A stretch of DNA of 64,000 nucleotides from an uncultured Gemmataceae bacterium (GTDB lineage: Bacteria; Planctomycetota; Planctomycetia; Gemmatales; Gemmataceae), in NCBI GenBank assembly GCA_963701675.1, contig OY969623.1, positions 6,450,599 through 6,514,598 of the forward strand. The letters run 5' to 3'. The notes below the pieces were generated by a model. That model was given only the letters and a program-made list of their open reading frames with translations. It searched no databases and was not told the origin of the DNA. A program made the translations under genes and the position numbers. Positions 6,093-53,070 of this stretch are shown here, piece after piece. The first letter of the stretch is position 1; each line of letters starts with the position of its first letter.

Positions 6093-6256
6093 CAGCGCAA
6101 GAAAACGAAAATCCATTCCCGCGCTTTTCGGCAGTGTGTGTCTTACTCTTTAGCTCGCACGATTGCGACGCCGTCACGCTGGCGGGGGAGGAACATCTTG
6201 TCTTTCCCAGCGGACCAATACCACCACAAATGCCCAATGAAACGCGGGGGTCTCTT

Positions 6257-8274
6257 ATGTTCTCTCTTCGAAAGCGCTCGCAAGCTACTCAAAGCCACGT
6301 GCGAAAAACGCGTTGGACGTGTCGGCCATCATTCGTCGCTTTGGAAAATCGTTGTCTGCCGTCAACGTTTTCATTGGCCTTCGACTCTCTCCCGAGTGCC
6401 CAAGGCTGGAACTACGCATCAAACGGTCCATCGGAAAACGCCGCCTATTGGGTCGACGGCACTAAGCTAACTCAAAACACAATGGCGACGGGCGTCACTT
6501 ACGCCCAATACAACAAGAATGCTTCGATTGATCCGACCAAAGCGTTTACCATTGAAACTCGCGTCAGAGTGATCGACAGCGAGACTACGGCGTGTTGCGC
6601 CCGGCGACGGCATTTCAGGCAATCGGTGCCACTGGCACCGAGTATTTTGGCTTTGGACTGAACAAGACAACTATCTACGCGCCATACGGTAAAGCTGGTT
6701 CCCTGTTTAATACCATCGACCCCACCCAGTTCCATACGTACCGGATCGAAGCAAACCCGGGCGTGAACGTCAGCATCTTCGTAGACGACGTCCTCCTCGT
6801 TTCGACGGTTCCCCCTCTGGTGGGGTCCGCAAATACTCTCTTACTTGGTAACGCTTCAAGCTTTGAAAACGGTCATGCTGAAGTTACGCACTACAAATTC
6901 ACGCAGGACACCTGCTCCACCGGCGACGATGTCGTCCTCACCTCGATCCGAACCGAGGACTCCCGCCAAATCCTCGTCGATTACGACATCAACAACCCCG
7001 CTCTGGCGGACAAGACATTCAACATCGGCATCTACCGCTCGCCTGACGAGGATTTCGACACGAGCGACGACGTGAAAATCGGATCGGTAACGATTTCAGG
7101 CCCACTGGCGATGGTGGGCCAGTATTTTGACGTGCCTGTAAACTTGGATTTCGACACAGCACTCGCACCAAGTTTCAATCTGAAGTACGTCATCGGCGTT
7201 GCCGATCCTGAGGGCACGCTGGATGGGTTCGGCCTGGATAGCTGCGATGCGCATTTTCGAAAGGTTGTCATTAGCGCTGTGTCCGTTGGCTTCCAGGTAC
7301 CTTGCTTTAGTACTTCTGAACCTGAATGGGTTACCACGATGGCAACTTCACTTAAGCAAGCCGGCTATGATGAAGTCGTTCCGTTCTGGTGGACCAGCTG
7401 CATTCCCTACCCCACCTATGATGATCGCGCGTCGAGCGACCTTTTTAACAGGCTTTCTTTGAAAGCGAGCGGGCTGATTCCGGCATTGGGAGAGAATGAC
7501 TCAATTGACCTGCACTTGATTGGCCACAGCCGCGGTGCTGTTGTCGTCAGCGGCACGATGGAGCTTTGGCAGGAACTCAACATACCTCAAGCAAAAGCCG
7601 GGTACATGAAGTTAACGCTCTTAGACCCCCATCCGGCGACCAACACATACGGGCTAAACGCAAGCATTTCCTCAAAGCCGAAAGCAGATGGTTACAAGGC
7701 GATCCAAGCTCTAATGAATGACGCGCCAATAACAGTCGCGGCGCGCGTGAACGAGGTAGAGGATTTCTGGCAGCGTACACACTACTATGAGGGGTTGCAG
7801 GGTAAGGAAGCAACCGTTAATCTCTGGGGACTTGACCACGAAGATATCAACGTAATGGGATCGCAGACCAACGTCTTTAGTTACAACCTCTCAGCCGCAT
7901 ACGAGTGCGGCAAGATCATTGGTCACACTGAAGTACATGAGTTCTATCAATCCACAATTCCAGGAAGTGGATGCCGATCAATCAAGAACGACACGCGCAA
8001 CACCTCTGAATTCGGCGGCAGGGTCGTCGTCGGCTCCAGTCCAGCGCCGATTCCGCCACCGGATCGGCCGTCTGCCAATTTAGCATTGGCACACAGTGCC
8101 AGCGACCTGATGAATCCCGCCCTTAGTAGCTCGGTGCCGGATTCCGATGCTGCGACGATGGTTGCCAAAACATCATCCGCACAGCCGATTGAACCGCCCA
8201 CACCATGCAGCCGCCTCGCCGCAACCGATTGGTTGACATCCACCATCCCCGACCCACTCGCCCTCGACCTGTAA
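6257..8274 (+). pseudogene. secreted LamG/ConA-like lectin domain fused to an alpha/beta-hydrolase (lipase-like, GHSRG) protein, split by a frameshift between about 6556 and 6661 (or a sequencing error)
   Basis: N-terminal 'FVALENRCLPSTF' motif (the same class as the FG-GAP genes); a LamG-like segment continues across two overlapping frames (ORFs 6134-6661 and 6592-8274); the nucleophile-elbow LIGHSRGAVV lies downstream. Confidence 0.5.
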
Positions 8275-24961: not shown

Positions 24962-27497
24962 TCAAATGTCCGCGAGAGATTTCGAGACTTGGTCGAGTTC
25001 CTTCTGCAGGGCGTCGCGCTTCTTGATCAAGTCCTCACGCTTGGCTAAGTGTTTCAGCATCAGAGCGACCGGCTTTCCGACCGGGACAAACTCGCCTTTT
25101 GCGATCTTCGCAGACAACGTTTCCCATGCCGCGGCGAGTTGCGGATCGCCGTAGTGTTCGCTAATGACTTTCGGGGTTAAGTCCGGCAACTGGACCTCGG
25201 CCGTCTTCTTTCGGCCGACGACGTCGAGATCGCGAGCTACCTTGAGCAACTTCTCCGTCTGCTTGCTGTCGAGCGGGAAGTAATAACCGTCCGTGGGATC
25301 GACACCCCATTCTTTCATCCCAGCCGACTTGTGAATGCTGCGTCCGCTGGGCAGGTGGAAATGTGCGTGGGTCAAGCGCAACGTTCCCTTTCCGGGAATG
25401 TCGTGAATCGTCTGCACGGAGCCTTTGCCGTACGATCGGGTGCCCAGAACCACGGCACGCTTGTGATCTTTGAGTGCGCCCGCGACCACCTCCGCAGCCG
25501 ATGCTGTTTGTTCGTTGATCAGAATAACCAAAGGCGCCTCGGGAACCAGAGCGGCGCCACTTGCCGAGTAGGTGTTGCCGGCATTGTTGTGGCCTTTGAT
25601 CGTCACGATGTCGCCTTGATTGACGAATTGCTCGGCGATCTGCACAGCCGTCGAAAGCATCCCACCCGGGCAGAAGCGAAGATCAATCACCAAGCCTTTC
25701 AGGCCTTTCTCCTTTAGCTGGAGGAGCAACGCGCGAAGGTCGTCCGCCGTCGTGGCTGTGAAATGAGTCACGTCGACATAAGCGATCTGTTTGTCATTGT
25801 CGATCATGAACTGCCAACGATCGTTCGCGTCACGGCGAAATCCTTTGACGCTTGGCACCTTAATTTGGGCCCGTGTGAGAGCGATCTCCTTTTCTTGGCC
25901 GTCGGCATGGCGAATCTTCAATTTCACCGTGCTCCCTTTCGGGCCGAGAATACGGTTAACGGCGGCCGGTAGCTCCAGCGCCTTCGTCGATTGGCCGTCG
26001 ATCTCCAGAACGACATCGTCGGGCTGGATGCCTGCCTCGATTGCCGGGGAGCCCTCAATCGGCGAAACAATGGTGAGTTGATTGTCCTTCAGGCGTAATT
26101 GAATGCCGACGCCGGCGAAGGTGCCCTAGGGTGCCGCGACCTAATTCCTCGAACTGTTCTGGCGTCAGGTACTCGGAGTATGGGTCGTTCAACGCTGAAA
26201 CCATGCCACGGATGGCGCCGTCGCTCAGATCCTGTTCTTTGACGTCGCGAACGTAGCTCTTCATGATGAGTGCACGAACTTCCGCGATTCGCTCGTTCTC
26301 CGCCGGGCACGGAGTAAGAACCTCCGCTGCGGCGTCCGAGTTAGCGGAGGCCGGCCGAGCGGACGCCGGCTGCAAACTGAGAGCGGAAAGGGGCAAGATC
26401 GTTGCAACGACGAGGAAAGCGCACGCAACGGCGGCACGGCGGCTCAAAGGCCGGCGGTCACGGGTCGAATCGAGAATGAGCCGTAGCCGTTGCTCGATTC
26501 TTCGCGGCCGACCCATCGCCAAGGCGACAGGGGCCGCAAAACGACTCACAGGCAAGCCGGCCGTGACCGCCAGCAAATGTTCGGCGTAGTCCGGACCGCT
26601 TGGCCCGGCATTCAGCACCATGTCGTCACACGCGCGTTCCTGCTCAGTTCGAAGTTGGCGCACGGCGATCCAAGTCATCGGATTAAACCAATAGAACGCC
26701 CGGCAAACGTGGGCAAGGAACTGAAGCATGCAATCTGCCCGGCAAATGTGCGCCAGCTCATGTAACAAAACCACGCGCACGCATTGCGGCGACCAGTTCA
26801 GCGCGTCCAGCGGCAATAAGATGACCGGCCGCTTGACACCCCAAGTCATCGGCATCGTCCGTCGCCGACTTGCCAGCAGGACAACTCGACGATTAACACC
26901 GAACCGATCCGCAAGGAGACGAACTAACGTGGTCAAAAAAGTGTCGTCCAGCGGATAACAATCACGCCGAAGCCGGCGAAGACTGATAATCCCCAGCGCA
27001 AGGGGGATGACTACCAGCGCAGCGCCTCCTAGCCAGCTCAAGAAGAGCCTGGTGGGCAGCGGCATTTCAGGCGCCGCAACCACAGCGGCCGTCGCTCGGT
27101 CCGTAAGAACCGGGGCACGGCGTTCATTCAAGTCGTTTACGAGCGGGTTCGTTCGTCGGAAATCCATGCCTTGAGAAGCGCGGGCGTCCGGGCTTACCGG
27201 CAACTCCGCAAGAGCGCCGGGCGGTGGCAGTGTTTCCTCGATCTTGATTTTCGCCCGTTGCGCCAGCCAATCCGCACGAATGGGTACGTGCCAAGTCGGC
27301 AGGATTGCCGAAAGCACGGGCAGGAAAAGGCAGCCGGTCAGTGCCGCGGACCAAATGATATGGCGGATGGCGGCGGACCTTCGGCGAAGCGCCGTTGTAA
27401 CCAGGCCGGCTATGGCCAAAAGCAACGCACCTTTCAACGATGCGTCGATCAAAATCGGCAGTCCCACTTGTGCGGCGTAGTTAATTGTGCTTCCCAC
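24962..27497 (-). pseudogene. BlaR1/MecR1-like M56 peptidase sensor fused to an S41 (CtpA/Prc-like, PDZ-containing) C-terminal processing protease; the reading frame is broken at about 26120 by a 10-bp insertion
   Basis: M56 HExxH 'VLLHELAHICRAD'; S41 'GLVIDLRFCPGGMLS', 'RSYGKGSVQ'; the junction 'ggcaccCTAGGGCACCttcgcc' introduces TAG; removing 10 nt restores '…LGRGTFAGVGIQL…'. Confidence 0.7.
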
Positions 27498-27499
27498 GT

Positions 27500-27889
27500 T
27501 TACCGTCCCTTCTTTCGTGCCTGGCTGATCAGATCGGCCAGGCGGGCGAGTTCGTCGGGAGACAAATCGGTGGCGATGTCACCGAGATGGGCGGCGACGG
27601 CCTTCTCGAGAGAGCCGTCGAAGAACGTTTCCAAGACTCGTCGAAAAGCCGATCGTCCGACATGACCGCGCGGCCGATTCGGCTGGTAGACATAGCGGAT
27701 GCCGTCCTCCTTGTGTCGAGCGTGACCCTTGGCTTCCAGAATCCGCAGCAACGTCCGGACGGCGGTGCGGCTTGGGGCATCGGGGAGATCGGCGTGAACT
27801 TCGGCGGCCGTTGCCTCACCACGTGCGTAGAGAATGTTCATGATCTGCCGCTCTCGGCGGCTGAGATGTTCCTCGAGTCGTTCCGGCAT
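27500..27889 (-). CDS. BlaI/MecI/CopY-family transcriptional repressor
   Basis: Winged-helix 'LSRRERQIMNILYARGEATAAEVHADL…SRTAVRTLLRILEAKG'; immediately upstream of, and co-oriented with, the M56 sensor gene. Confidence 0.75.
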   Translation of the reverse strand: MPERLEEHLSRRERQIMNILYARGEATAAEVHADLPDAPSRTAVRTLLRILEAKGHARHKEDGIRYVYQPNRPRGHVGRSAFRRVLETFFDGSLEKAVAAHLGDIATDLSPDELARLADLISQARKKGR

Positions 27890-28002
27890 TAGCGAAAAGT
27901 CCTGTGGAGGATGATGGAAGCAAAAACGGCCTATATGCCAAATTTTTAACCGGATCGGAGGTGGTGTCAAGCCCAACGTGCCAAGATTTTGACGCCGCTG
28001 AG

Positions 28003-28380
28003 TCACTCGCGGAACAGCACCAGGTATACCGCCATGGCCGTTCCGATGATCGACATCACGACGGCGGCCATTAATGGCAACGACCATCGCGGCGGTAAAT
28101 AGGGTTCGTTGCGATTCAGACGTTGAACGATGCGCCAATGCTCGGCCGCGGCCAGAAGATTGATCGCCACGCCGACGACCACGAGCGCCGTCCCAAACCA
28201 CAACGAAAGCCCCGGAGACTGCTGCGGCGGTTTGTGTTCGACGAGCGACAACTCACGAAGCACGAAGCTAAAACGGGCCAGAACGAAACCGAATCCCATG
28301 AGCGCCAGGCCCGTTCGAATCCACGCCAGCAGCGTTCGCTCGGAAGCGAAACGAACTCGCGGATCTTCACCTCCATCCAT
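28003..28380 (-). CDS. DUF202 (YidH-like) small membrane protein
   Basis: 'FASERTLLAWIRTGLALMGFGFVLARF' is the DUF202 signature. Confidence 0.55.
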   Translation of the reverse strand: MDGGEDPRVRFASERTLLAWIRTGLALMGFGFVLARFSFVLRELSLVEHKPPQQSPGLSLWFGTALVVVGVAINLLAAAEHWRIVQRLNRNEPYLPPRWSLPLMAAVVMSIIGTAMAVYLVLFRE

Positions 28381-30609: not shown

Positions 30610-31206
30610 GTGGTGACAATGGAGACGGTATTTCTCGTTTGTGCGATCGTCGGTGGAACTCTGCTCGTCGGGCAAATGTTGCTGAGCTTTCTCGGATTCG
30701 GGGAGCATCACGGCGACATGGGCCATGATGTCGTCGATGCGCATCATGATGTCGGGCACGATCACGACGGCGCCTGGTTTGTCGGGTTGTTGACTTTCCG
30801 CGCCATCGTGGCTGCCCTGATGTTTTTCGGGCTAGTGGGATTGGCGAGCAACTCGCGCTTTCCGGAAGAGCCGATGGCCCCGCTGGGGCTGGCCCTCGGG
30901 GGCGGGTTTGCCGCGATGTTTATCGTCTCATGGATGATGCGGCAATTGCATCGACTTCGAGCCGAAGGAACGGTGCGCATTGACCGCGCCGTCGGCGCCA
31001 ATGGTACGGTATACTTGAGAATCCCTGGGCAGAGATCTGGAGTGGGCAAGGTTTCTTTGAACCTTCAGAATCGCACAGTGGAATATCAGGCGGTTACTTC
31101 ACACGATGAACTCCCGACCGGCGCCAAGATACGCGTGGTGGGTGTAGTCAGTTCCGATACCCTCGAGGTTGTCCCGGCAGATGCAGAAAGGGCCGCACAT
31201 GTTTAG
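30610..31206 (+). CDS. NfeD-like membrane protein (partner of flotillin)
   Basis: N-terminal TM helices, a His/Asp-rich loop and a C-terminal OB-fold-like segment; it overlaps the start of the downstream flotillin gene. Confidence 0.55.
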   Translation: MVTMETVFLVCAIVGGTLLVGQMLLSFLGFGEHHGDMGHDVVDAHHDVGHDHDGAWFVGLLTFRAIVAALMFFGLVGLASNSRFPEEPMAPLGLALGGGFAAMFIVSWMMRQLHRLRAEGTVRIDRAVGANGTVYLRIPGQRSGVGKVSLNLQNRTVEYQAVTSHDELPTGAKIRVVGVVSSDTLEVVPADAERAAHV

Positions 31207-32821
31207 CCTCTTTGCCGCTACCGATGCGCTCCAAGAAGTTCCTTGGGTGGCAGTCATTGCGGTCGCCGCCGCACTGTTGTTCCTCAGTTTCTTCCTTCTG
31301 TTGGTGCAGCGATACAAGCGCTGTCCCAGCAACCGGATCATGGTCATCTATGGAAAAGTAGGCGGCGGACAGGCTGCCAAATGTATCCAGGGCGGCGCTG
31401 CGTTCGTTTGGCCGTTGATCCAAGACCATGCATTCTTGAGTCTTGAACCCATTCAGATTGAGATACCGCTAAAGGGGGCGCTGTCGGCAGAAAACATTCG
31501 GGTAAGCGTGCCCAGTGTTTTCACCGTGGCCATCGGCACCGATGCCGAGACGATGCAAAATGCGGCCATCCGCATGTTAGGTAGCGATACCGAGGAGACA
31601 AAACAGCGGGCGGCGGAGATCATCTTCGGCCAACTCCGCCAGGTGATCGCCTCCATGCATATCGAGGAGATCAACAAAGACCGCGATAAGTTCTTACATA
31701 GCATTCAGACTTCATTGGAGCCGGAGCTAAAAAAGATCGGCTTGGTGTTGCTCAACGTCAACATTACCGACATCACCGACGAGTCCGGCTACATCGAAGC
31801 CATTGGCCGCAAAGCGGCGTCTACCGCCGTCCAGCAGGCGCGGGTTGATGTCGCCGAGCAAGAAAAGAAAGGGCAGGTCGGCGTCGCCGAGGCTGAACGC
31901 GAGAAAGTGATTCAGGTTGCCAACGCAACCAAGCTACGCGAGATCGGCACGCGCGAGGCCTCCCGCGAGCAAATGGTGCGCGTCGCGCAACTGGAAAAGG
32001 AACAGCAAGTCGGCGAGCAGGCGGCAGCTTTCGAACGCGAGGCCCAGGTCAAGGACGCCGAGCGCACCATGCGTATCGCGACGGCCGATGCCAACGCCAA
32101 GGCGATCGCGGGTGAGGCGCAAGCACAGGCAGCGGTCGCCGCGGCCAATGCCACACTGCAGGTCAAGCAAGCCGAGGCGTTCCAACTCGGCGAAACACGC
32201 AAGCGCGAAGCCGAAGCCGCCGTACAGGAAGCTCAACACCGCGCTCAAGCCAAAGCCGCCCTTGCTCACGCCGAGCGGATCGAAGCCGAACGCCGTGCCG
32301 AGCTGGAAGCGCCGGCGAAGGCCGAGAAGGCCAAGATTATTGTCGACGCCGAGGCGGAAGCGGAAAAGCGCCGCATCGAAGCGGAAGGCGAGGCCGCCGC
32401 GATATTCGCCAAGCTGGAAGCCGAGGCTCGCGGTCAGTACGAAATCCTCGCCAAAAAAGGCGACGGTTTGAAGCAGATCATTCAAGCCTGCGGCGGCGCG
32501 CCCCAGGCCTTTCAACTTCTCATGTTGGAACACCTCGACACGTTGGCGCAAACGGCAGCGCAAGCCATCGCTAATATCAAGTTCGACAAGGTCGTCGTGT
32601 GGGAAGGCGGCAATGGCGCCGGCAACGGCAGCAACACCGCACAATTCCTGCAAAGCATGGCACGCACGTTGCCGCCCATGATGCAAATCATGAAAGACAT
32701 CGGCGGTGTGGAACTGCCCGATTACCTCGTGCGTCTGGGCACCGAAGGGCACGACGGTGGCAAAACGGCCCACGCCGAGAACGCCAAGTCACCGGACAAG
32801 CCGACACCCGCGAAAGGGTAA
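31199..32821 (+). CDS. flotillin / SPFH (band 7) domain protein with a long EA-rich coiled coil
   Basis: N-terminal TM helix plus an SPFH domain; AEAEAEKRRIEAEGEAAAI flotillin-type repeats. Confidence 0.8.
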   Translation: MFSLFAATDALQEVPWVAVIAVAAALLFLSFFLLLVQRYKRCPSNRIMVIYGKVGGGQAAKCIQGGAAFVWPLIQDHAFLSLEPIQIEIPLKGALSAENIRVSVPSVFTVAIGTDAETMQNAAIRMLGSDTEETKQRAAEIIFGQLRQVIASMHIEEINKDRDKFLHSIQTSLEPELKKIGLVLLNVNITDITDESGYIEAIGRKAASTAVQQARVDVAEQEKKGQVGVAEAEREKVIQVANATKLREIGTREASREQMVRVAQLEKEQQVGEQAAAFEREAQVKDAERTMRIATADANAKAIAGEAQAQAAVAAANATLQVKQAEAFQLGETRKREAEAAVQEAQHRAQAKAALAHAERIEAERRAELEAPAKAEKAKIIVDAEAEAEKRRIEAEGEAAAIFAKLEAEARGQYEILAKKGDGLKQIIQACGGAPQAFQLLMLEHLDTLAQTAAQAIANIKFDKVVVWEGGNGAGNGSNTAQFLQSMARTLPPMMQIMKDIGGVELPDYLVRLGTEGHDGGKTAHAENAKSPDKPTPAKG

Positions 32822-32905
32822 CCTGCGTGGGCTAGTCGGCTTCATCCCGAAGCCAACCTTTGTTATCATCCGGCGTCCGCGTGGTCGCTCGAAACTCGCA
32901 ATGGA

Positions 32906-34769
32906 GTGCGATCCTTGACCGCCATACTGGGCATATCCGCCTTCTACCATGACAGTGCTGCGGCATTGGTGGTCGACGGCGACATTTTCGCCGCCGCTCA
33001 GGAAGAGCGGTTCACGCGCATCAAACACGACTCCGCATTTCCCAAATGCGCCATTCGCTATTGCCTCCGGGAAGGCGGGCTATCCCCGCGCGATCTGGAT
33101 TACATCGCCTTCTACGACAAGCCGCTGACCAAATTCGAACGGCTCCTGGAAACTTACCTGGCCTTTGCGCCCGCGGGTTTCGCAGCTTTCGGCTCGCCAT
33201 GCCGGTGTGGTTGAAGGAAAAATTGTTCACACGGCGGACTATTCGCCGCGGCTTCGACGAGCCGATGACCGCGCCCTTGGTGTTCACCGATCACCACGAA
33301 AGTCATGCCGCCAGCGCGTTCTTTCCGAGCCCGTTCGATGAAGCCGCGATTCTTACGCTCGACGGCGTCGGCGAATGGAGCACAACGACATACGGTGAGG
33401 GCCGCGGCAATCGCATCTCGCTGACTCACCATCTCTCGTTTCCGCATTCGTTGGGTCTCTTGTATTCGGCGTTCACGTATTACTGCGGCTTCCGGGTGAA
33501 CAGCGGTGAGTACAAACTGATGGGCCTCGCGCCCTATGGCCAACCGATTTATCAAGACGCGATTTACCGCCATCTCATCGATCTCAAGCCCGACGGCAGC
33601 TTCTGGCTCAACATGAAGTATTTCAACTATTGCCCGGGATTGACCATGACGAGCCGGTGCTTTCATCGGCTCTTCGGTGGTGCTCCGCGCGACCCGGAAT
33701 CGCCCATTCTGCAACGGCACATGGACCTGGCTGCCAGCATTCAGGCCGTGACGGAAGAGATCATGTTGCGCCTCGCCCGCACCGTGCATCGGCAGACGGG
33801 CATGAACAAGCTCGTGCTCGCCGGCGGCGTGGCGCTCAACTGCGTGGCGAATGGACGGTTGCTGCGCGAAGGGCCTTTCGAGTCGATTTGGATCCAGCCT
33901 GCCGCGGGAGATGCCGGCGGCGCGCTCGGGGCGGCCCTTTTCACCTGGCACCAACTTCTGAACAAGCCGCGCGGGCCGAGGTCGGACGATTCGCAAAAGG
34001 GCAGCCTCCTCGGTCCTGCATTCTCTGCCTACGAAGTCGAACAGTTCTTGCACGCCAATGAGGTCCCCCACGAGTGCTTTCAAGACGAGTCGGAACTCGT
34101 TGCTCACGCGGCCGATCTGCTGGCGGAAGGGAAAGTCGTCGGTTGGTGTCAAGGCCGGATGGAATTTGGCCCTCGAGCCCTCGGGCGCGGAGCATTCTCG
34201 GCGATCCGCGCTCGCCGAACATGCAGGCTCTCATGAACCTCAAGATCAAGTTTCGCGAGAGTTTTCGACCGTTTGCACCGTGCGTTCTGCGTGAGCATGC
34301 CGCCGACTGGTTCGATCTCAATCCGGAAAACGAAAGCCCGTACATGCTTCTGGTCGCGCAAGTCAAACCGAAGCATCACGTTCCCATCACCGTCGCGGAT
34401 CACCGCGTGATGGAACAGGACTCGGATTTGCGGAAACGAGTGAACGTCGTGCGCTCCGTGGTGCCGGCGATCACCCACGTCGATTACAGCGCCCGCCTAC
34501 AGACCGTGGACGAGGTACGAAACCCGCGCTTTCACCGCCTGCTCAGTGCATTTCATCAACGAACCGGCTGCCCGATTCTCGTGAACACGAGCTTCAACGT
34601 CCGCGGTGAACCCATCGTGTGCTCTCCGCGCGACGCATACCGATGTTTCCAGGCAACGAAAATCAATGCGTTGGTAATGGAAGATTGCGTAGTGCACAAG
34701 TCGGACTTGGAGCCAGAGAGTGCGCGCGCCGAACAAGCGGAGTATCTCGCTCAGTTTGCGTTGGATTAA
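32906..34769 (+). pseudogene. NodU/CmcH-family carbamoyltransferase interrupted by two single-nucleotide deletions (about 33200 and about 34200), or sequencing errors
   Basis: N-terminal 'ILGISAFYHDSAAALVVDGDI…AAQEERFTRIKHD'; the protein continues in the next frame ('RSFRLAMPVWLKEKLF…', '…FGPRALG|ARSILGDPRSPNMQ…') across three overlapping ORFs in frames 2, 1 and 0. Confidence 0.7.
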
Positions 34770-34784
34770 AGGGAAGGTGACGAC

Positions 34785-35153
34785 ATGAATTGGTCACAGG
34801 CGACGCGCCAGCCGACGACACGCGAGGTGAGGCAGTTCGCGGTGCTCTGTAGCGTTTGTTTCGGCGGACTGGCAGCATGGCAGTTTGCCGATGGCGGACG
34901 CTTCATCGGGTTTATGTGCGTCATTATTGCGCTGGCCGTTGCGCCCGTGGGAGTTTGGAAGCCATCAATGCTTCGGCCGGTGTACATGGGCTGGATGGTG
35001 CTGGTCTTTCCAATTGCTTGGTCGGTTTCGAATCTCATTCTTGCGGCCGTTTATCTCGGCATGGTTGTGCCGATCGGCGTTGCGTTTCGATTCGCGCGCG
35101 GGATGTTCTTGGACTTCGGCACGATCCTGATCGTGTCTCCTATTGGAAGTTGA
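34785..35153 (+). CDS. SxtJ-like small integral membrane protein (carbamoyltransferase-associated)
   Basis: Three to four TM helices; positioned directly after the carbamoyltransferase, as in conserved cassettes. Confidence 0.45.
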   Translation: MNWSQATRQPTTREVRQFAVLCSVCFGGLAAWQFADGGRFIGFMCVIIALAVAPVGVWKPSMLRPVYMGWMVLVFPIAWSVSNLILAAVYLGMVVPIGVAFRFARGMFLDFGTILIVSPIGS

Positions 35154-35209
35154 AGCCCTCGCCGGGTGACGCAAGCACCTACTTTCGCCAATTTTGAAAG
35201 GGCTGGTGA

Positions 35210-35401
35210 ATGAACACGGAACCATTCGAACAGCAGGCGGGCCACATGACGGAACGCTCACTACCTGTCGAACTTTGGAGTTTTGTTTCGCACACCAAGA
35301 AATGGTGGTTGTTGCCGATTCTTGTCGTCTTGTTATTGTTTGCCGCGTTGCTGTTCCTCAGCCTCACACCGGCGGCGCCGTTCATCTACACTTTGTTCTG
35401 A
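35210..35401 (+). CDS. DUF5989-family tiny membrane protein
   Basis: 'KKWWLLPILVVLLLFAALLFL…APFIYTLF' matches the DUF5989 consensus. Confidence 0.55.
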   Translation: MNTEPFEQQAGHMTERSLPVELWSFVSHTKKWWLLPILVVLLLFAALLFLSLTPAAPFIYTLF

Positions 35402-35413
35402 GATTCCCAGTGC

Positions 35414-36160
35414 TTACTGTTTGGCGGCGATCGTTTGCGCCAACGGACGGACCACGGCCGGGATGATGTGGTTGTCCACCAGTTCCTGGCAGATCTTGCG
35501 CTGATGGTGGTATGACTCGACGAAAGACTTGTGGGGTTGTCGGCCCCAGTATTGGCGGACGGTGAAATAGACGCTAATCGGCGCTTCGGGGAAGTTCCCG
35601 GTTCGAATTTGGTACGCGTTCGTGCGTGTCTCGATGCTGAGCCGGCACTGGAGCCGGCACGCCTCATCGAGAGCGAGCATGAGTGATGGCTCGTAGTTGA
35701 TCACGCGGCTGCCGGGCATTTGCAACAGACTTTCGAGCGTCGTGTTGAGCCCGAGCGCCTCCGCTACCACTTCGTCGTGATTGCCGGTGAAGCTGAAATC
35801 GAAAGCGAAGAGCACGTCCATGGCTTCGCAGTCGAGGGAACTAAAATCCAGGTGGTACGGGGCCAATTCCAGGACCCGCTCGTGTTGGGCGTCGGCGTCT
35901 TCGACTTCCGGTGGATTGACAAAACCGGTGCACAGGCGGTGATGTTCCAATGTGACCCAGCGGTAGCTGCCTTTTTCGCGATCCTCTTCGAGCACGAACT
36001 CGCCGCTTTCCCGGCGCTCGAAGTCGGTCATTTGCGGAAAGTGCTTTTGCAGACTGTCGAAGAAATGCAAAACGGTTTCCCGCCCGGACGGAAGCTCCAT
36101 CTTGGTATTCAGGTAGACATACACCCCGAAGTCGTCACAGAGCGAGTTGTATGAATTCAT
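35414..36160 (-). CDS. hypothetical protein (248 aa), co-operonic with the large upstream unknown
   Basis: ATG at 36160; strong coding bias; no recognisable domain. Confidence 0.45.
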   Translation of the reverse strand: MNSYNSLCDDFGVYVYLNTKMELPSGRETVLHFFDSLQKHFPQMTDFERRESGEFVLEEDREKGSYRWVTLEHHRLCTGFVNPPEVEDADAQHERVLELAPYHLDFSSLDCEAMDVLFAFDFSFTGNHDEVVAEALGLNTTLESLLQMPGSRVINYEPSLMLALDEACRLQCRLSIETRTNAYQIRTGNFPEAPISVYFTVRQYWGRQPHKSFVESYHHQRKICQELVDNHIIPAVVRPLAQTIAAKQ

Positions 36161-36308
36161 CAGGTTTACCTCAGGCCATCGATCAACGGCCGTTGGGCGA
36201 TCCGGCTGTCCCGTCACCCCATTGTTTGAGTTTTTAATGCCAATTGCAAGCCCTGCCGGGACTTTTCTCAAAGTCGATGTGGATACCGAAGGCGGCACGT
36301 CGTGCTGT

Positions 36309-38294
36309 TCAATCGTACCCCATAACCGGACTGCGGATGTCGATGACATGTTCGCGCCAGTGCGCGTCGTGTCCTTCGCTGAATCGCACTGCGTGAAGTC
36401 CTGACGCCGGATATTCCACGCCGCCGCGACAGCGATAGCCAGCGGTTGGATCGAATCTTAGCTCCACTTTCTTCCGAAAACCGTCCCAGTGAATCACCAG
36501 TTCGCCGGGAAAATCGCCGGCAAGCACCAGGAGGCCAGTAGCAGCGGGACCGAAGGCGACGCGCTCTTTCAACTCCGTCCAATCAAACATGGACATGAAC
36601 TCGCGCTGGGATCGCGTGGTCATCCGTAACAACACGAAATCGGTGGCCACACGGTAAGCGTCGGCGAGGGACACCTGACCAGGCCGGGCTGAAGTGGACG
36701 GCGGTGTCACCTGAACCCCGTCCATCGGCATTTGGTTGACGACAGCCTGGGCATGGGAATGCGTTTCTTTCGGGAGATCGAACTCCGGGAACTCGGCCAA
36801 TTCAGCCAGCCGGCGGCGCGCGATGGACCGGCTGAATGATTCGTACGAGAGCAACGGTGTTCGGTCAGGTTCGCCGATGCGTTTGCACGTTCCCAACGGC
36901 CGATCGAGAAAGATTGCGCTGCCCAGTTCCCGCAACTCATCCAGAACGGCCAGGTCGATGACACTCTGGCGTAACACCGCCGAGGTAGTTTCGCTCAAGT
37001 AAGAAGGTAGCGGATCATTCTCGAACAGGTGTTTCGTGCGTGTCGTCGTGTCCAGAATTTGTACGTCGGGAACGCGACGGTGCGGCGGTGGAAGGACGCG
37101 CGTGTTCTCACCGGCGGAAGTCGGCTCGTCGGGAACGGCCAGTCCTTCGTAGAGTCGCCGAAAGTACCATCCGTGCAGGAGCGCTCTGCGGCGAATGCGT
37201 TTTCGATCGCGGGCCGTCGTGTCGTCCTCATCCCGCGGCAAAAACAACAGAGGATTCTGCTCGATCAACTGAAGATACGCCTTGACTGCCTCATCAAGCA
37301 GCAGCGCATCCGGATAATTGGCACCGCGCTGGTGATAGGTCACGAGATCATACGCCGTCAGATGCCGGCCGAGTTGTCGGAGAATGTAGCTCAGGAAATC
37401 GATATGCTGCGCCACGCTCCAACCGCCGCACGATTCGAGTGAGGCGACAAAATCGAGGGTTTTCGGAACAAAATCGGTGTAAGGCGTGAGACTGGCGTAA
37501 TCGAACATATCGCGGAGCAGCCGCGGCAACGCCGGAAGGCTTTCGAGAGCAATCAGCTTTTCCACAAACATGGCCGCTAGATTTGCGACTTCCGATTGTG
37601 GAGTCGAGCGCAACGCGATTTCCAATAGCTTGATTCGTTCGACTCGCGAGAGGTCGACGGCCCATGCCTCTCGTATCAGCTCCGAGTATTCTCGAAACGG
37701 CGGTTGGGCGGAGCGCGTGATGCAAAAACAGTACGCCAACTGACCGAACGAGAACTCGGGCAAAGGCGCCTCGATCGAGGTCAGCGGCAACCGACTGGCC
37801 CCGACAACCGCATGAAAAAGATAACCGATCAATTCGTCGCGCAAGTCCTCGGCGTCTGTTAGAGACGGGAGGTGGATCGTGCCCACCAACTCACGCACCC
37901 ATTTTCGTGTTTCACGAGTCAGAAACGTGTTGTCAGTTGCTTCGTACCCTTCGGTCACCATCGAATCAATGGCGCGAGTAATATGAACGTTCTCATGGGC
38001 GGCATCGTACAACACCGCGATCAACGGCTCGGCGGCCCGCCCATCGGGGCCCGAGCGATAAACATGGCGCGACTCGAAGCGACCTATCAAGCGCGTGTGT
38101 GCCGGGTCGAGCAAGCGTCCGTGGAACAATTCCCATGGGATTTCCTCTGTGAACCAATCGGTCCATTCGATGTGGATGGAGGGGTCAACGAAGAAGTGCC
38201 CCGGACGAAGCACTTCGTCGATGACTTGCCGCACGGCCTGCCGTGTCAACGGTTGGCCCTGCGTGTTGCCGGTTCTGGCGCGAAACCTCACCAC
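36309..38294 (-). CDS. hypothetical large protein (661 aa), unknown function
   Basis: Long ORF with coding bias; no P-loop, HExxH or other recognisable motif. Confidence 0.5.
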   Translation of the reverse strand: MVRFRARTGNTQGQPLTRQAVRQVIDEVLRPGHFFVDPSIHIEWTDWFTEEIPWELFHGRLLDPAHTRLIGRFESRHVYRSGPDGRAAEPLIAVLYDAAHENVHITRAIDSMVTEGYEATDNTFLTRETRKWVRELVGTIHLPSLTDAEDLRDELIGYLFHAVVGASRLPLTSIEAPLPEFSFGQLAYCFCITRSAQPPFREYSELIREAWAVDLSRVERIKLLEIALRSTPQSEVANLAAMFVEKLIALESLPALPRLLRDMFDYASLTPYTDFVPKTLDFVASLESCGGWSVAQHIDFLSYILRQLGRHLTAYDLVTYHQRGANYPDALLLDEAVKAYLQLIEQNPLLFLPRDEDDTTARDRKRIRRRALLHGWYFRRLYEGLAVPDEPTSAGENTRVLPPPHRRVPDVQILDTTTRTKHLFENDPLPSYLSETTSAVLRQSVIDLAVLDELRELGSAIFLDRPLGTCKRIGEPDRTPLLSYESFSRSIARRRLAELAEFPEFDLPKETHSHAQAVVNQMPMDGVQVTPPSTSARPGQVSLADAYRVATDFVLLRMTTRSQREFMSMFDWTELKERVAFGPAATGLLVLAGDFPGELVIHWDGFRKKVELRFDPTAGYRCRGGVEYPASGLHAVRFSEGHDAHWREHVIDIRSPVMGYD

Positions 38295-43988: not shown

Positions 43989-44804
43989 GTGGCCATGTGG
44001 GAGACAACGACGATTCTGTACTGGGCGATTGCGGCGGGTATTCTCATTTTGGGATTGTCGGGAATTCGAGTCGCGCAAGAATACCGGCGCGCGGTGGTGT
44101 TCCGTTTGGGCCGGTATCACTCCATTCGCGGACCGGGCTTGTACTACAACATTCCGATTATCGAATGGCAGAAGTCCGTCGATATGCGAACCGTTACGGT
44201 TGACGTGGAGCCTCAGGAAACGATCACCAAGGACTCGGTGACGATCAAGGTGAACGCGGTGTTGTGGTACCGAGTCACCGTGCCGTTCAAGGCGATTCTC
44301 GAAGTCGCGGACTTCCGGGCGGCCGTGTATCAAGTCGCCCTGACGAGCCTGCGAAACATCATCGGCCAACATGTGCTGGACGAAGTTCTGAAGGAACGGG
44401 ACAAGATCAACCTTATGCTTCGGGAGATTGTGGACCGCGATACCGACCCGTGGGGTGTCAAAGTAGAGATGATCGAGATGAAGGACGTGGAAATTCCACA
44501 GGCCATGCAACGGGCGATGGCCCGCGAGGCTGAGGCGATCCGGGAAAAGCGTGCCCGCATCATCAAGTCCGAAGCGGAACTGGAAGCCTCAGCCAAGCTG
44601 GCACAGGCTTCGGAGGTAATCACGAGGCATCCGCTGAGCTTGGAACTTCGCCGAATGCAGATGATCTCCGAAGTCGGCGCGGAGCAAAACACGACGACCA
44701 TCATCATGATGCCGTCGGAGTTCGTGTCGATGGCGAAAGGCATCGGAGATTTGCTTAAGCAAACCAGCAACGGCGTCGCCCGGGAACCCATCGCCAAAGG
44801 CTAA
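43989..44804 (+). CDS. SPFH/band-7 (stomatin/HflC-like) membrane protein
   Basis: N-terminal TM helix plus 'IRVAQEYRRAVVFRLGRY…' in the SPFH domain. Confidence 0.8.
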   Translation: MAMWETTTILYWAIAAGILILGLSGIRVAQEYRRAVVFRLGRYHSIRGPGLYYNIPIIEWQKSVDMRTVTVDVEPQETITKDSVTIKVNAVLWYRVTVPFKAILEVADFRAAVYQVALTSLRNIIGQHVLDEVLKERDKINLMLREIVDRDTDPWGVKVEMIEMKDVEIPQAMQRAMAREAEAIREKRARIIKSEAELEASAKLAQASEVITRHPLSLELRRMQMISEVGAEQNTTTIIMMPSEFVSMAKGIGDLLKQTSNGVAREPIAKG

Positions 44805-50726: not shown

Positions 50727-53070
50727 CTAGTTTTCTGACGGTCTAGAGCCGAATTCCATCGCGAACGGGTCAAGAACCAAGTGCAGCCGCTTGATCGCCG
50801 CGGCACGTCCTGGCGGAAGGATTCGTTTGGGCGTGGCCGCGGGATCGGATTTCGCGACATCGGGTGGCGAAGTGCGAATTAGTTTTACGGCTGATCTCCG
50901 TATTCCATCCGGCTCATCCTCAAGCGGCATCGGCGGCCAGATGCCGTCGTTGAGCACGACAGCGACACCATTCTCTAGCGCGGCCACGACATCCAGCCAG
51001 CCGATATCCGCGAGTGCCACTGGTGCCTGAACGAAAGAACTGCCTGGATAGGGGAAATCACCCACGGAGAACTGACAATCATTCTTAAACGTGCCATCGC
51101 CGTTTCCTATCAAGAGGCTCACGGTGCCGCCCCAATGATTGCCCACGATCAAATCCACGTTGCCATCGCCACTGACGTCGCCGGCCGTGATCGTCCGAGA
51201 TGTATTGCCGACCGCGTAGCTAGTCGGCGCGGAAAAAGTCCCGTCGCCATTACCGGAGAGTACGCGAACACTACCGACGTTAGAATCGCTTGTAACGGCC
51301 AGATCGAGGTCACCGTCTCCATCAAAGTCTTCCGTCACCAAATCGTAGAGAGACGATCCGGCTGCGAAGCCGGCCGCCGGCTGAAACGTGCCGTTACCGT
51401 TCCCCAGGAGAATACTTATCGTGCCGGCAACCTTGTTCCCGGTGGCGAGGTCTGGTTTGCCGTCGGCGTCGAAGTCCCCGATCCCCACACTGCGGGGCTC
51501 GTTGCCCGTGTCGAACGTGAGACCCGAACCAAACGTCCCGTCGCCAATTCCCAGCAGAATTTGCACCGAATCGCCGACGCTATCGGCGATGACAAAATCC
51601 AAGTCGCCATCGCTATCAACATCAGCGGTGGCGATAGCGAAAATCGTGTTACCACCGGAAGGATAGCTGACGAAAGGCTTGAACGTCCCGTCACCGTTGC
51701 CGAGGGCGACGCGTACCGTCTCCTCGAAGTTTAATCCGACCGCAACATCGAGGGCCCCGTCACCGTTGAAATCTCCTGATGTGAATCCTCGTGTACCACT
51801 CCCGATGAGGTAGGACCGCGATTTCTCGAAGGTCGCATTTCCCACGCCAAGCATTACCGTCAGATACCCGGGGCCACCGTTGTTGCCTTCCGACAATATC
51901 AAATCGACTTCACCATCTCCGTTGAGGTCCGATGGAGCGATCCCCCAAGGGTGTTTGGGAGCGGCGGAAATCAGCCATTCAGTGAACACCCCTCCGCCAA
52001 GCCCGATCTGAAACGTCACAGTCCCGCCGGTGGTCACATTGTTGGCGATGGCGATGTCCGGCACTCCGTCGCCGGTGTAATCGCGAATCGCCGCGCCGCT
52101 GACGCCGGTGCCGGCAATGTACGGCCCCGCGGTCTGGAACGACCCGTCCCCGTATCCCAGGTTCAGGTGGAATTGCTCTGGACCCAACGCAATAAAGTCG
52201 AGTTTACCATCTTGATCGAGGTCCTCCGTGTCTATCAAGTGCACACTGGTTCCGGCGGAATACACTCCTGCGATTTGGAATGTGCCGTCGCCATTGCCCA
52301 AGCGCACGATCACTGTTCCATCAGTATTGGCAACTGCCAGGTCGGGGTTGAAGTCAGCGTTGTAGTCGGCGACGGAAACATCGTTCGGGGTTCCTTCGTT
52401 GTACTGCGCCGAACCAGAACGTGCCGTCGCCATTACTCAAAAGGATGGCCGTCTTGGGTGCGGAACTGAAGTTGCCTACGGTGACGATGTCGTAGAGGCC
52501 GTCGCTGTTGAAATCGCCGGTCGATACCGCCCGCATTTTTGTGCCCATGTCGTAGCTGACCGTATTTTGGAAGGCGCCGCCGCCCAGACCGGTGAGAACG
52601 GTAACATTTCCGAGGTCGTAGTTGGCCACGACTAAATCAATGATTCCATCGACGTTGAAGTCTGAATACCCTACGGAAGTGGGATTCGCTCCGGCCTCGA
52701 AAGTCATTGGTCGACGAAACAACCCGGTGGCCGATCCACGGAGCACGGCGATCTCATCGTTGGGCCCTGAGTAATTATCGTTCGTCACCACCAGATCGAG
52801 CCGGCCATCGCCGCTAACGTCGACCGCGACCAATGACGTCGGGTTATTGCCGCCGGTTGGAAAGCTCTTCGGTGCTCCGAACGTGCCGTTGCCGGCGTTC
52901 AGCATAATGCTGATGGAGCCCGGCTTGGTTTGATTGGTCACGACGATGTCGTAGAGCCCATCGCCGTTGAAATCGTCGCTCACGACGTCTGATGGCGACG
53001 CACCCACCAAGATCGCCTGCGGCGCGGCGAAGCTCGGCACATCCCGGCGTTCGAGGGCTTCCAGGGTCAA
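50727..53070 (-). pseudogene. FG-GAP/VCBS-repeat beta-propeller protein, paralogue 1, split by a +1 frameshift near 52400-52420 (or a sequencing error)
   Basis: N-terminal 'MTLEALERRDVPSF'; repeating '…LGNGDGTF…DFNGDG.LDL…' units; overlapping ORFs 52354-53070 and 50727-52433 join into one continuous FG-GAP repeat. Confidence 0.7.

Follow-up and report, generated by a model that had tools for sequence, protein, structure and literature searches.

A SxtI/SxtJ/SxtK-type carbamoyltransferase cassette with three frame breaks in an uncultured Gemmataceae bacterium

What does an O-carbamoyltransferase do when it is encoded together with two small membrane proteins and little else, and how is such a cassette to be read when its frames are broken? 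Both questions are raised by a three-gene unit at positions 32906-35401 of a 64,000-nucleotide (nt) stretch of DNA from an uncultured Gemmataceae bacterium (GenBank assembly GCA_963701675.1, contig OY969623.1, positions 6,450,599 to 6,514,598 of the forward strand; hereafter the window). We find that the unit is an unremarkable instance of a widespread module of the SxtI/SxtJ/SxtK type that is already catalogued, and we take the three single-base deletions that interrupt it to be consensus or assembly errors, with a probability of roughly 60%.

Composition and distribution of the module

Pfam matches to Carbam_trans_N/C, SxtJ and DUF5989 bear out the composition given in a preliminary description of this DNA, namely a carbamoyltransferase, a small membrane protein and a DUF5989 protein. 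The first gene (32915-34769, plus strand), a member of the SxtI/NodU/CmcH/TobZ family encoding 618-621 amino acids (aa) if repaired, is spread over three plus-strand open reading frames (ORFs; 32906-33214, 33046-34236 and 34074-34769 in the ORF listing), and a tblastn search with the repaired protein used frames 2, 1 and 3 of the window. As deposited, the window therefore holds no uninterrupted frame for an active transferase. The first ORF matches profile positions 2-89 of Carbam_trans_N (E = 5.5e-24), the second positions 85-346 of the same profile (E = 2.8e-71) together with positions 1-26 of Carbam_trans_C (E = 1.4e-9), and the third positions 26-170 of Carbam_trans_C (E = 2.7e-58). Two ORFs each thus cover the N-terminal Kae1/ASKHA-like domain (PF02543; profile positions 2-346) and the C-terminal YrdC-like domain (PF16861; 1-170), with profile positions 89/85 and 26/26 meeting at the frame junctions. 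Translation probably starts at TTG 32915, which has GGAG 8 nt upstream and is where homologue alignments begin; GTG 32906 is a less likely alternative. After a gap of 15 nt follows a gene for a small membrane protein of the SxtJ family (34785-35197, plus strand; PF19588; 137-138 aa when intact), and then, in the position of SxtK, a DUF5989 gene (35210-35401, plus strand; PF19451) with an intact frame of 63 aa. Shine-Dalgarno-like sequences precede the starts of all three genes.

Once its frame is repaired, the 621-aa transferase aligns over its full length, at 72-77% identity, with thousands of homologues of 616-620 aa (typically 618 aa). Its assignment to the NodU/CmcH-type O-carbamoyltransferases in the preliminary description is upheld by the presence of both domains and by the nearest solved structures, NovN (9s2t), GdmN (7vyj and others) and TobZ (3ven and others), with E values from 1e-98 to 1e-80; it is not a NodU equivalog, scoring 139.6 bits against the NCBIfam NF041651 cut-off of 1000. 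In an alignment with the best 120 matches, 257 columns were conserved in at least 119 of the 121 sequences, and the repaired protein deviates at none of them, compared with 0-5 deviations in individual homologues; nor does it contain an in-frame stop. The motifs HHESH, GGVALN, AAGDAG, GPRALGxRS, FRPFAP and NTSFN are all present, in columns that are 98-100% conserved across the 121 sequences. The conserved metal and nucleotide motifs (HxxxH, GDAG, GPRALGxRS, FRPFAP, NTSFN) are accordingly retained, GPRALG/ARS being the one cut by the second frameshift.

The SxtJ-like ORF as read (34785-35153) matches PF19588 with E = 4.9e-7 and 30.9 bits (gathering score 24.4), and its frame-repaired version with E = 1.4e-7 and 32.6 bits. 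Homologues are abundant, with 1669 matches at E<1e-5, and carry the NCBI name 'SxtJ family membrane protein'. The protein is predicted to have 3-4 hydrophobic helices, with basic segments at both termini. In an AF2 model of one homologue (P0302; pLDDT 85.5) helices span residues 12-36, 40-59 and 61-104, and a Foldseek search of this model against the PDB returned no match (best E 3.7, TM below 0.35). The third ORF matches PF19451 with E = 1.6e-17 and 63.7 bits (cut-off 27), and the family is larger still, 1994 representative clusters matching at E<=1e-3. The DUF5989 protein possesses one predicted transmembrane helix after KKWW, the WW..P motif and the invariant C-terminal APFIYTLF, with no deviation at columns conserved in >=90% of 74 homologues. 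No NCBIfam model matched either small protein, and the term 'DUF5989' was not found in the literature searched. Two apparent SxtJ-DUF5989 fusions (L031, P0126) were rejected as Rosetta-stone evidence, their linkers being out-of-frame read-through of the SxtJ tail. We also observed a 2657-aa predicted protein (P0128) in which a unit of about 60 residues is repeated in tandem about 40 times, the hydrophobic stretch of each unit matching the DUF5989 transmembrane segment; this protein probably reflects an oddity of repeats or of assembly and has no relation to the family.

The distribution of the trio was surveyed at 80 loci, taken from a scan of one genome per species and with transferase identities of 64-75%, in which every ORF was searched with iterated profiles for the small genes. 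The transferase is directly followed by an SxtJ-like ORF at 76/80 loci, and a DUF5989 ORF comes after SxtJ at 73/80; the loci lacking either one are mostly at contig ends. The preliminary description had the trio recurring widely, and named as its weak point the case that the small ORFs have no homologues beside carbamoyltransferases in other genomes; at these loci such homologues are the rule. The loci span Planctomycetota, Verrucomicrobiota, Acidobacteriota, Rokubacteria, Krumholzibacteriota, Eisenbacteria, Omnitrophota and others, with stop-to-stop spacings of about 425 and 235 nt, compared with 428 and 204 nt in the window. Variants were found among Acidobacteriota: at two loci (L040 and L061, 7944-10838) the transferase ORF is extended by about 350 C-terminal residues before SxtJ, and at five (L013, L030, L031, L034, L040) the trio is preceded, at a distance of a few kb, by one or two extra carbamoyltransferase genes of about 31% identity that are not accompanied by SxtJ or DUF5989.

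Comparison with characterised systems places the cassette closest to the stand-alone trios of Isosphaeraceae, Gemmataceae, Pirellulales, Verrucomicrobiota and Acidobacteriota, which constitute its direct family, with 64-77% identity and the same order and spacing; their ORFs, unlike those of the window, are intact, except in some metagenome-assembled genomes (MAGs) with 'MFD' titles. The likeness to saxitoxin clusters noted earlier is also supported: the gene sizes match those of sxtI, sxtJ and sxtK (1839, 405 and 165 bp; PMC2679770). The gene order is that of sxtI-sxtJ-sxtK(-sxtL), and the products agree in length (transferase about 612-621 aa, SxtJ about 134-138 aa, third protein 54-63 aa). 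The likeness to SxtI and SxtJ is one of order, size and Pfam family, and the equivalence of the DUF5989 protein to SxtK is one of position and size alone. Elsewhere, at about a quarter of loci, a GDSL/SGNH gene adjoins the trio at the position and size of sxtL (a GDSL lipase gene of 1281 bp; PMC2679770, PMC2684587), whereas the window cassette stands alone among housekeeping-type genes, with no other sxt genes, no GDSL gene and two of its genes frame-broken. TobZ, GdmN and NovN share the Kae1-like and YrdC-like domains, a near full-length match and the family motifs. These enzymes lie in antibiotic clusters, whereas the clade of the window enzyme is linked to SxtJ and DUF5989 and shows far stronger conservation between phyla. 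To our knowledge, TobZ, GdmN and NovN work without dedicated membrane partners.

Frame breaks: sequence error or decay

The preliminary description had noted two frameshifts in the transferase, and this count stands for that gene (-1 each). For the cassette the total is three, since the SxtJ gene is also broken, and at least two more breaks lie in unrelated genes of the window, which leads us to a different reading of the breaks. Three-frame translation and homologue alignment place frameshift 1 (33170-33172, plus strand) in or next to a CCC run, where one base has been lost between ETYLAFAP and RGFRSFRLAMPVWL. Frameshift 2 (34183-34185, plus strand) corresponds to a base lost in or next to a GGG run and splits GPRALG from ARSILGD, within a motif, GPRALGxRS, that a recent preprint cites as the putative catalytic site of SxtI. 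Frameshift 3 (35097-35099, plus strand) is the loss of one base within GCGCGCGGG in the SxtJ gene, between VAFRFA and xRDVLGL, and the R-D pair, conserved in >=90% of homologues, is regained only in the other frame. SxtJ as read consequently stops at 35153 after 122 aa, intact homologues all having 138 aa, while the tail RD.L...SYW.PK...YFRQF, ending in RDVLGLRHDPDRVSYWKLKPSPGDASTYFRQF and a stop codon, is encoded in the other frame through 35197. One added base restores this tail, and the repaired protein then has a single, conservative deviation at conserved columns (A for G in FPIGW). Each of the three breaks is mended by exactly one base, after which the transferase junctions align with homologues without gaps. 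A motif common to the break sites, CGCGG, was discarded as uninformative because it is found 335 times in the window.

Further breaks in the window were sought by codon-usage frame segmentation combined with domain logic. An M56-CtpB_N gene (26055-27497, minus strand) continues as PDZ and S41 domains in another frame, and deleting a base at 26123 yields an ORF of 844 aa. Likewise, an FG-GAP/VCBS gene (50727-53070, minus strand) is divided inside a repeat into ORFs of 238 and 568 aa, which deletion of a base at 52416 joins into one of 780 aa. Two additional candidates, at about 6570 and 36330, are undecided. Abutting same-strand ORF pairs in different frames were also observed at 6134-8274 (plus strand; 175 and 560 aa) and 35414-38294 (minus strand; 661 and 311 aa); both are without a Pfam hit and could be frameshifts or true overlapping genes. 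The second pair follows the cassette immediately, and a relative has ORFs that agree with it in length and order (650 and 247 aa).

Related loci and a second assembly were also compared. Frame-broken trio genes occur at 4/13 loci with 'MFD' record titles (L008, L031, L033, L060), names which we take to denote long-read metagenome MAGs, as opposed to 0/67 others (Fisher's exact test, ~5e-4). Apparent multi-frame matches among the 67 non-MFD loci turned out to be paralogous transferases of about 31% identity. A Logan contig (run ERR12036784), for which gene coordinates alone were compared, encodes an identical DUF5989 protein, and for the 4.8 kb that follow the cassette its genes are collinear with those of the window. 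The SxtJ product of this contig has 114 aa, corresponding to one base fewer than in the window, and the upstream partial ORF occupies a frame that is not open in the window; from these differences it follows that the two assemblies disagree in length specifically inside the cassette.

Taken together, the intact conserved columns, the gap-free repairs by one base, the breaks in other genes of the window, the confinement of breaks among related loci to MFD assemblies and the length mismatch with the Logan contig favour an artefact. Several findings weigh against it. Three of the five or more frameshifts in the window fall within 2.5 kb, 4% of the 64-kb window, and those in the cassette are all deletions, the other two being insertions, such that the errors are not uniformly spread. 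The protein set of the deposited genome includes the truncated 122-aa SxtJ product. Furthermore, the closest available relative, a metagenomic contig (JGI 3300056388) whose MetRS clusters with that of the window at >=90%, has SpoVG rather than the cassette beside a 247-aa gene. The order on this contig is 247-aa gene, 650-aa gene, ThuA, DUF2784, MetRS, TIM-barrel and Band_7, its first two genes being equated with the two unknown genes of the window by order and length alone. Absence from this syntenic site marks the cassette as accessory and dispensable, a setting in which real decay would be tolerated. On the same contig, a 962-aa DAO/Trp_halogenase/GT41 gene and an acetyltransferase gene are inserted in the region syntenic to 38.3-40.1 kb of the window.

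Genuine recent pseudogenisation, in which an acquired or retained accessory module is being lost through two deletions in the transferase and one in SxtJ, is accordingly a possibility that we regard as doubtful but by no means negligible. It would account for the clustering of three breaks in 2.5 kb as compared with two in the other 61 kb, for their all being deletions, one of which cuts the GPRALGxRS motif, and for the missing cassette in the relative; the Logan contig, with its 114-aa product, also lacks an intact 138-aa SxtJ as judged from gene coordinates alone. However, neutral decay with three fixed indels should also have brought many substitutions, and none is found at the 257 near-invariant transferase columns, nor any in-frame stop. 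Similar frameshifts are moreover present in unrelated genes of the window, and in related loci only among 'MFD' MAG assemblies. The short G/C-rich runs at which the breaks sit might alternatively point to programmed frameshifts, by recoding or by phase variation switching the cassette on and off. Such a mechanism is highly improbable, given that the runs are just 3 nt, far below slippage-prone tract lengths, that no slippery heptamer is common to the three sites, and that in homologues one frame runs through each junction, none of the 67 non-MFD loci being shifted there. An accessory region carried by only part of the sampled population would have low coverage and a poor consensus, and this would fit both the facts that favour sequence error and those that weigh against it.

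Gene neighbourhood of the trio

To describe the neighbourhood, flanking genes of the surveyed loci were clustered all against all and Pfam was applied to the nearest and second-nearest genes. Just one neighbour recurs, a GDSL/SGNH hydrolase of about 370-455 aa, located immediately downstream at 15/73 loci and immediately upstream at 6/73, that is, at 21/146 immediate flanking positions and about a quarter of loci. In all ten of the hydrolases inspected the N-terminus is basic and leads into a single hydrophobic helix, which makes a signal anchor. Among second-nearest neighbours, Pfam revealed no dominant family. Neighbours of exopolysaccharide (EPS) type were found at a minority of loci, with DUF3485/EpsI at 7, a Wzc-like P-loop protein at up to 8, and GT2, Wzt or FemAB-like genes at 3-5 loci each. 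On one metagenomic contig (that of P0025), the trio lies amid three GDSL genes, an AlgX-like gene, glycosyltransferases and a second transferase of 589 aa.

Neither a GDSL/SGNH partner nor EPS-type genes were found in the flanks of the window cassette. Upstream lie, in order, BlaI, a BlaR1-Ctp fusion, GlgB, an NfeD-like gene and flotillin; downstream are the two unknown minus-strand genes, ThuA, DUF2784 and MetRS, with PIN and TIM-barrel genes also within about 10 kb. Core sxt genes (sxtA, sxtG, sxtB, sxtD, sxtS, sxtU, sxtH/T and others) are absent from flanks of about 10 kb. With GlgB, the NfeD-like and flotillin genes and the two unknown genes as its surroundings, the cassette was rightly described as stand-alone. 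A terminator-like hairpin 3' of the flotillin gene (32838-32854, plus strand), a pattern match from a consensus scan, suggests that the cassette forms its own transcription unit, and a promoter scan detected no sigma-70-like promoter.

Some of these flanking genes have features of their own. The NfeD-like membrane protein gene, without a Pfam hit, overlaps the gene for the 550-aa flotillin/Band_7 protein (30610-32821 for the pair, plus strand), and a second Band_7 gene is located at 43989-44804. The region 24962-27497 (minus strand) joins a BlaR1-type M56 peptidase and a complete C-terminal processing protease (CtpB_N-PDZ-S41), an unusual architecture for a sensor, with a BlaI/Penicillinase_R-type repressor gene (27500-28201) directly upstream of the fusion gene.

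Possible roles and significance

In TobZ, GdmN and NovN, carbamoyl phosphate and ATP are converted to carbamoyl-AMP in the YrdC-like domain, and the carbamoyl group is then moved to a hydroxyl of the substrate at the metal site of the Kae1-like domain. Judging from family membership, the transferase of the module would likewise form carbamoyl-AMP from carbamoyl phosphate and ATP in its C-terminal YrdC-like domain, and pass the carbamoyl group to an acceptor hydroxyl in its N-terminal Kae1-like domain. Since both small genes almost always trail the transferase, in the same order and usually closely spaced, we infer that SxtJ and DUF5989 are obligate partners, which may anchor the soluble enzyme at the inner membrane, on its cytoplasmic side, or, alternatively, may present the acceptor or hand it on. 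A physical complex of SxtI, SxtJ and SxtK is treated as a hypothesis in the literature (PMC2679770; PMC12300590; bioRxiv 10.64898/2026.06.11.731795).

With regard to the acceptor, transferase identities of 64-77% across phyla and the occurrence of the module in unrelated contexts weakly support a common membrane-associated component, such as an envelope glycan or a lipid-linked intermediate, over a natural product specific to one lineage; the envelope is also suggested by the signal-anchored SGNH partner. The earlier proposal that a lipid or glycan is carbamoylated at the membrane gains modest contextual support from the hydrolase and from the EPS-type genes present at a minority of loci, and is otherwise only plausible. 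Against a membrane or glycan acceptor, most loci, the window included, lack glycan genes nearby, and the acceptor of the sxt pathway is a small soluble alkaloid. Characterised relatives of the enzyme, namely TobZ, NovN, GdmN, SxtI and CmcH, act on natural products (PMC2885083), and the cassette could by the same token perform a tailoring step in a saxitoxin-like or other specialised-metabolite pathway, on a small natural product made by genes elsewhere. This we consider very unlikely: neither flank contains biosynthetic genes within about 10 kb, the context across the 80 loci is unrelated save for the SGNH hydrolase, the identity maintained across phyla argues for a single shared acceptor, and the NodU equivalog score given above falls far short of its cut-off.

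A membrane-associated acceptor allows a more specific, and in our estimation unlikely, proposal, in which the trio and its SGNH partner constitute a system dedicated to O-carbamoylation of the envelope, a carbamoyl counterpart of the PatA/PatB or AlgI/AlgJ/AlgX acetylation systems. SxtJ and DUF5989 would hold a membrane-bound carrier or a lipid-linked sugar, onto which the cytoplasmic transferase would load the carbamoyl group; this group or the modified unit would reach the periplasmic face, and the SGNH protein would transfer or trim it there; cyanobacteria would have co-opted the whole block as sxtIJKL. In a more speculative variant, the invariant Tyr-Thr of APFIYTLF in DUF5989 would itself be the acceptor. 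In envelope O-acetylation by PatA/PatB, AlgI/AlgJ/AlgX and OatA, a signal-anchored SGNH protein of the periplasm is paired with a membrane component, and the roughly 25% of trio loci adjoining a signal-anchored SGNH/GDSL protein resemble these systems by analogy. The trio differs in lacking an MBOAT or AT3 protein and in the transfer of carbamoyl rather than acetyl groups, and neither SxtJ nor DUF5989 is homologous to the membrane components of the acetylation systems.

The window cassette is thus one more, possibly mis-assembled, copy of a cassette already named by Pfam and NCBI, and its frameshifts, as probable sequence errors, should be given no biological reading until the reads have been checked. 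The wider interest lies in an extremely conserved enzyme clade, found here in at least six phyla, in the near-constant company of two tiny membrane proteins. A complex of SxtI, SxtJ and SxtK has been assumed in the saxitoxin literature since 2008-2009, and the comparative result narrows the search: the module is self-contained, has a signal-anchored SGNH hydrolase as its sole recurrent neighbour and corresponds to the sxtIJKL block.

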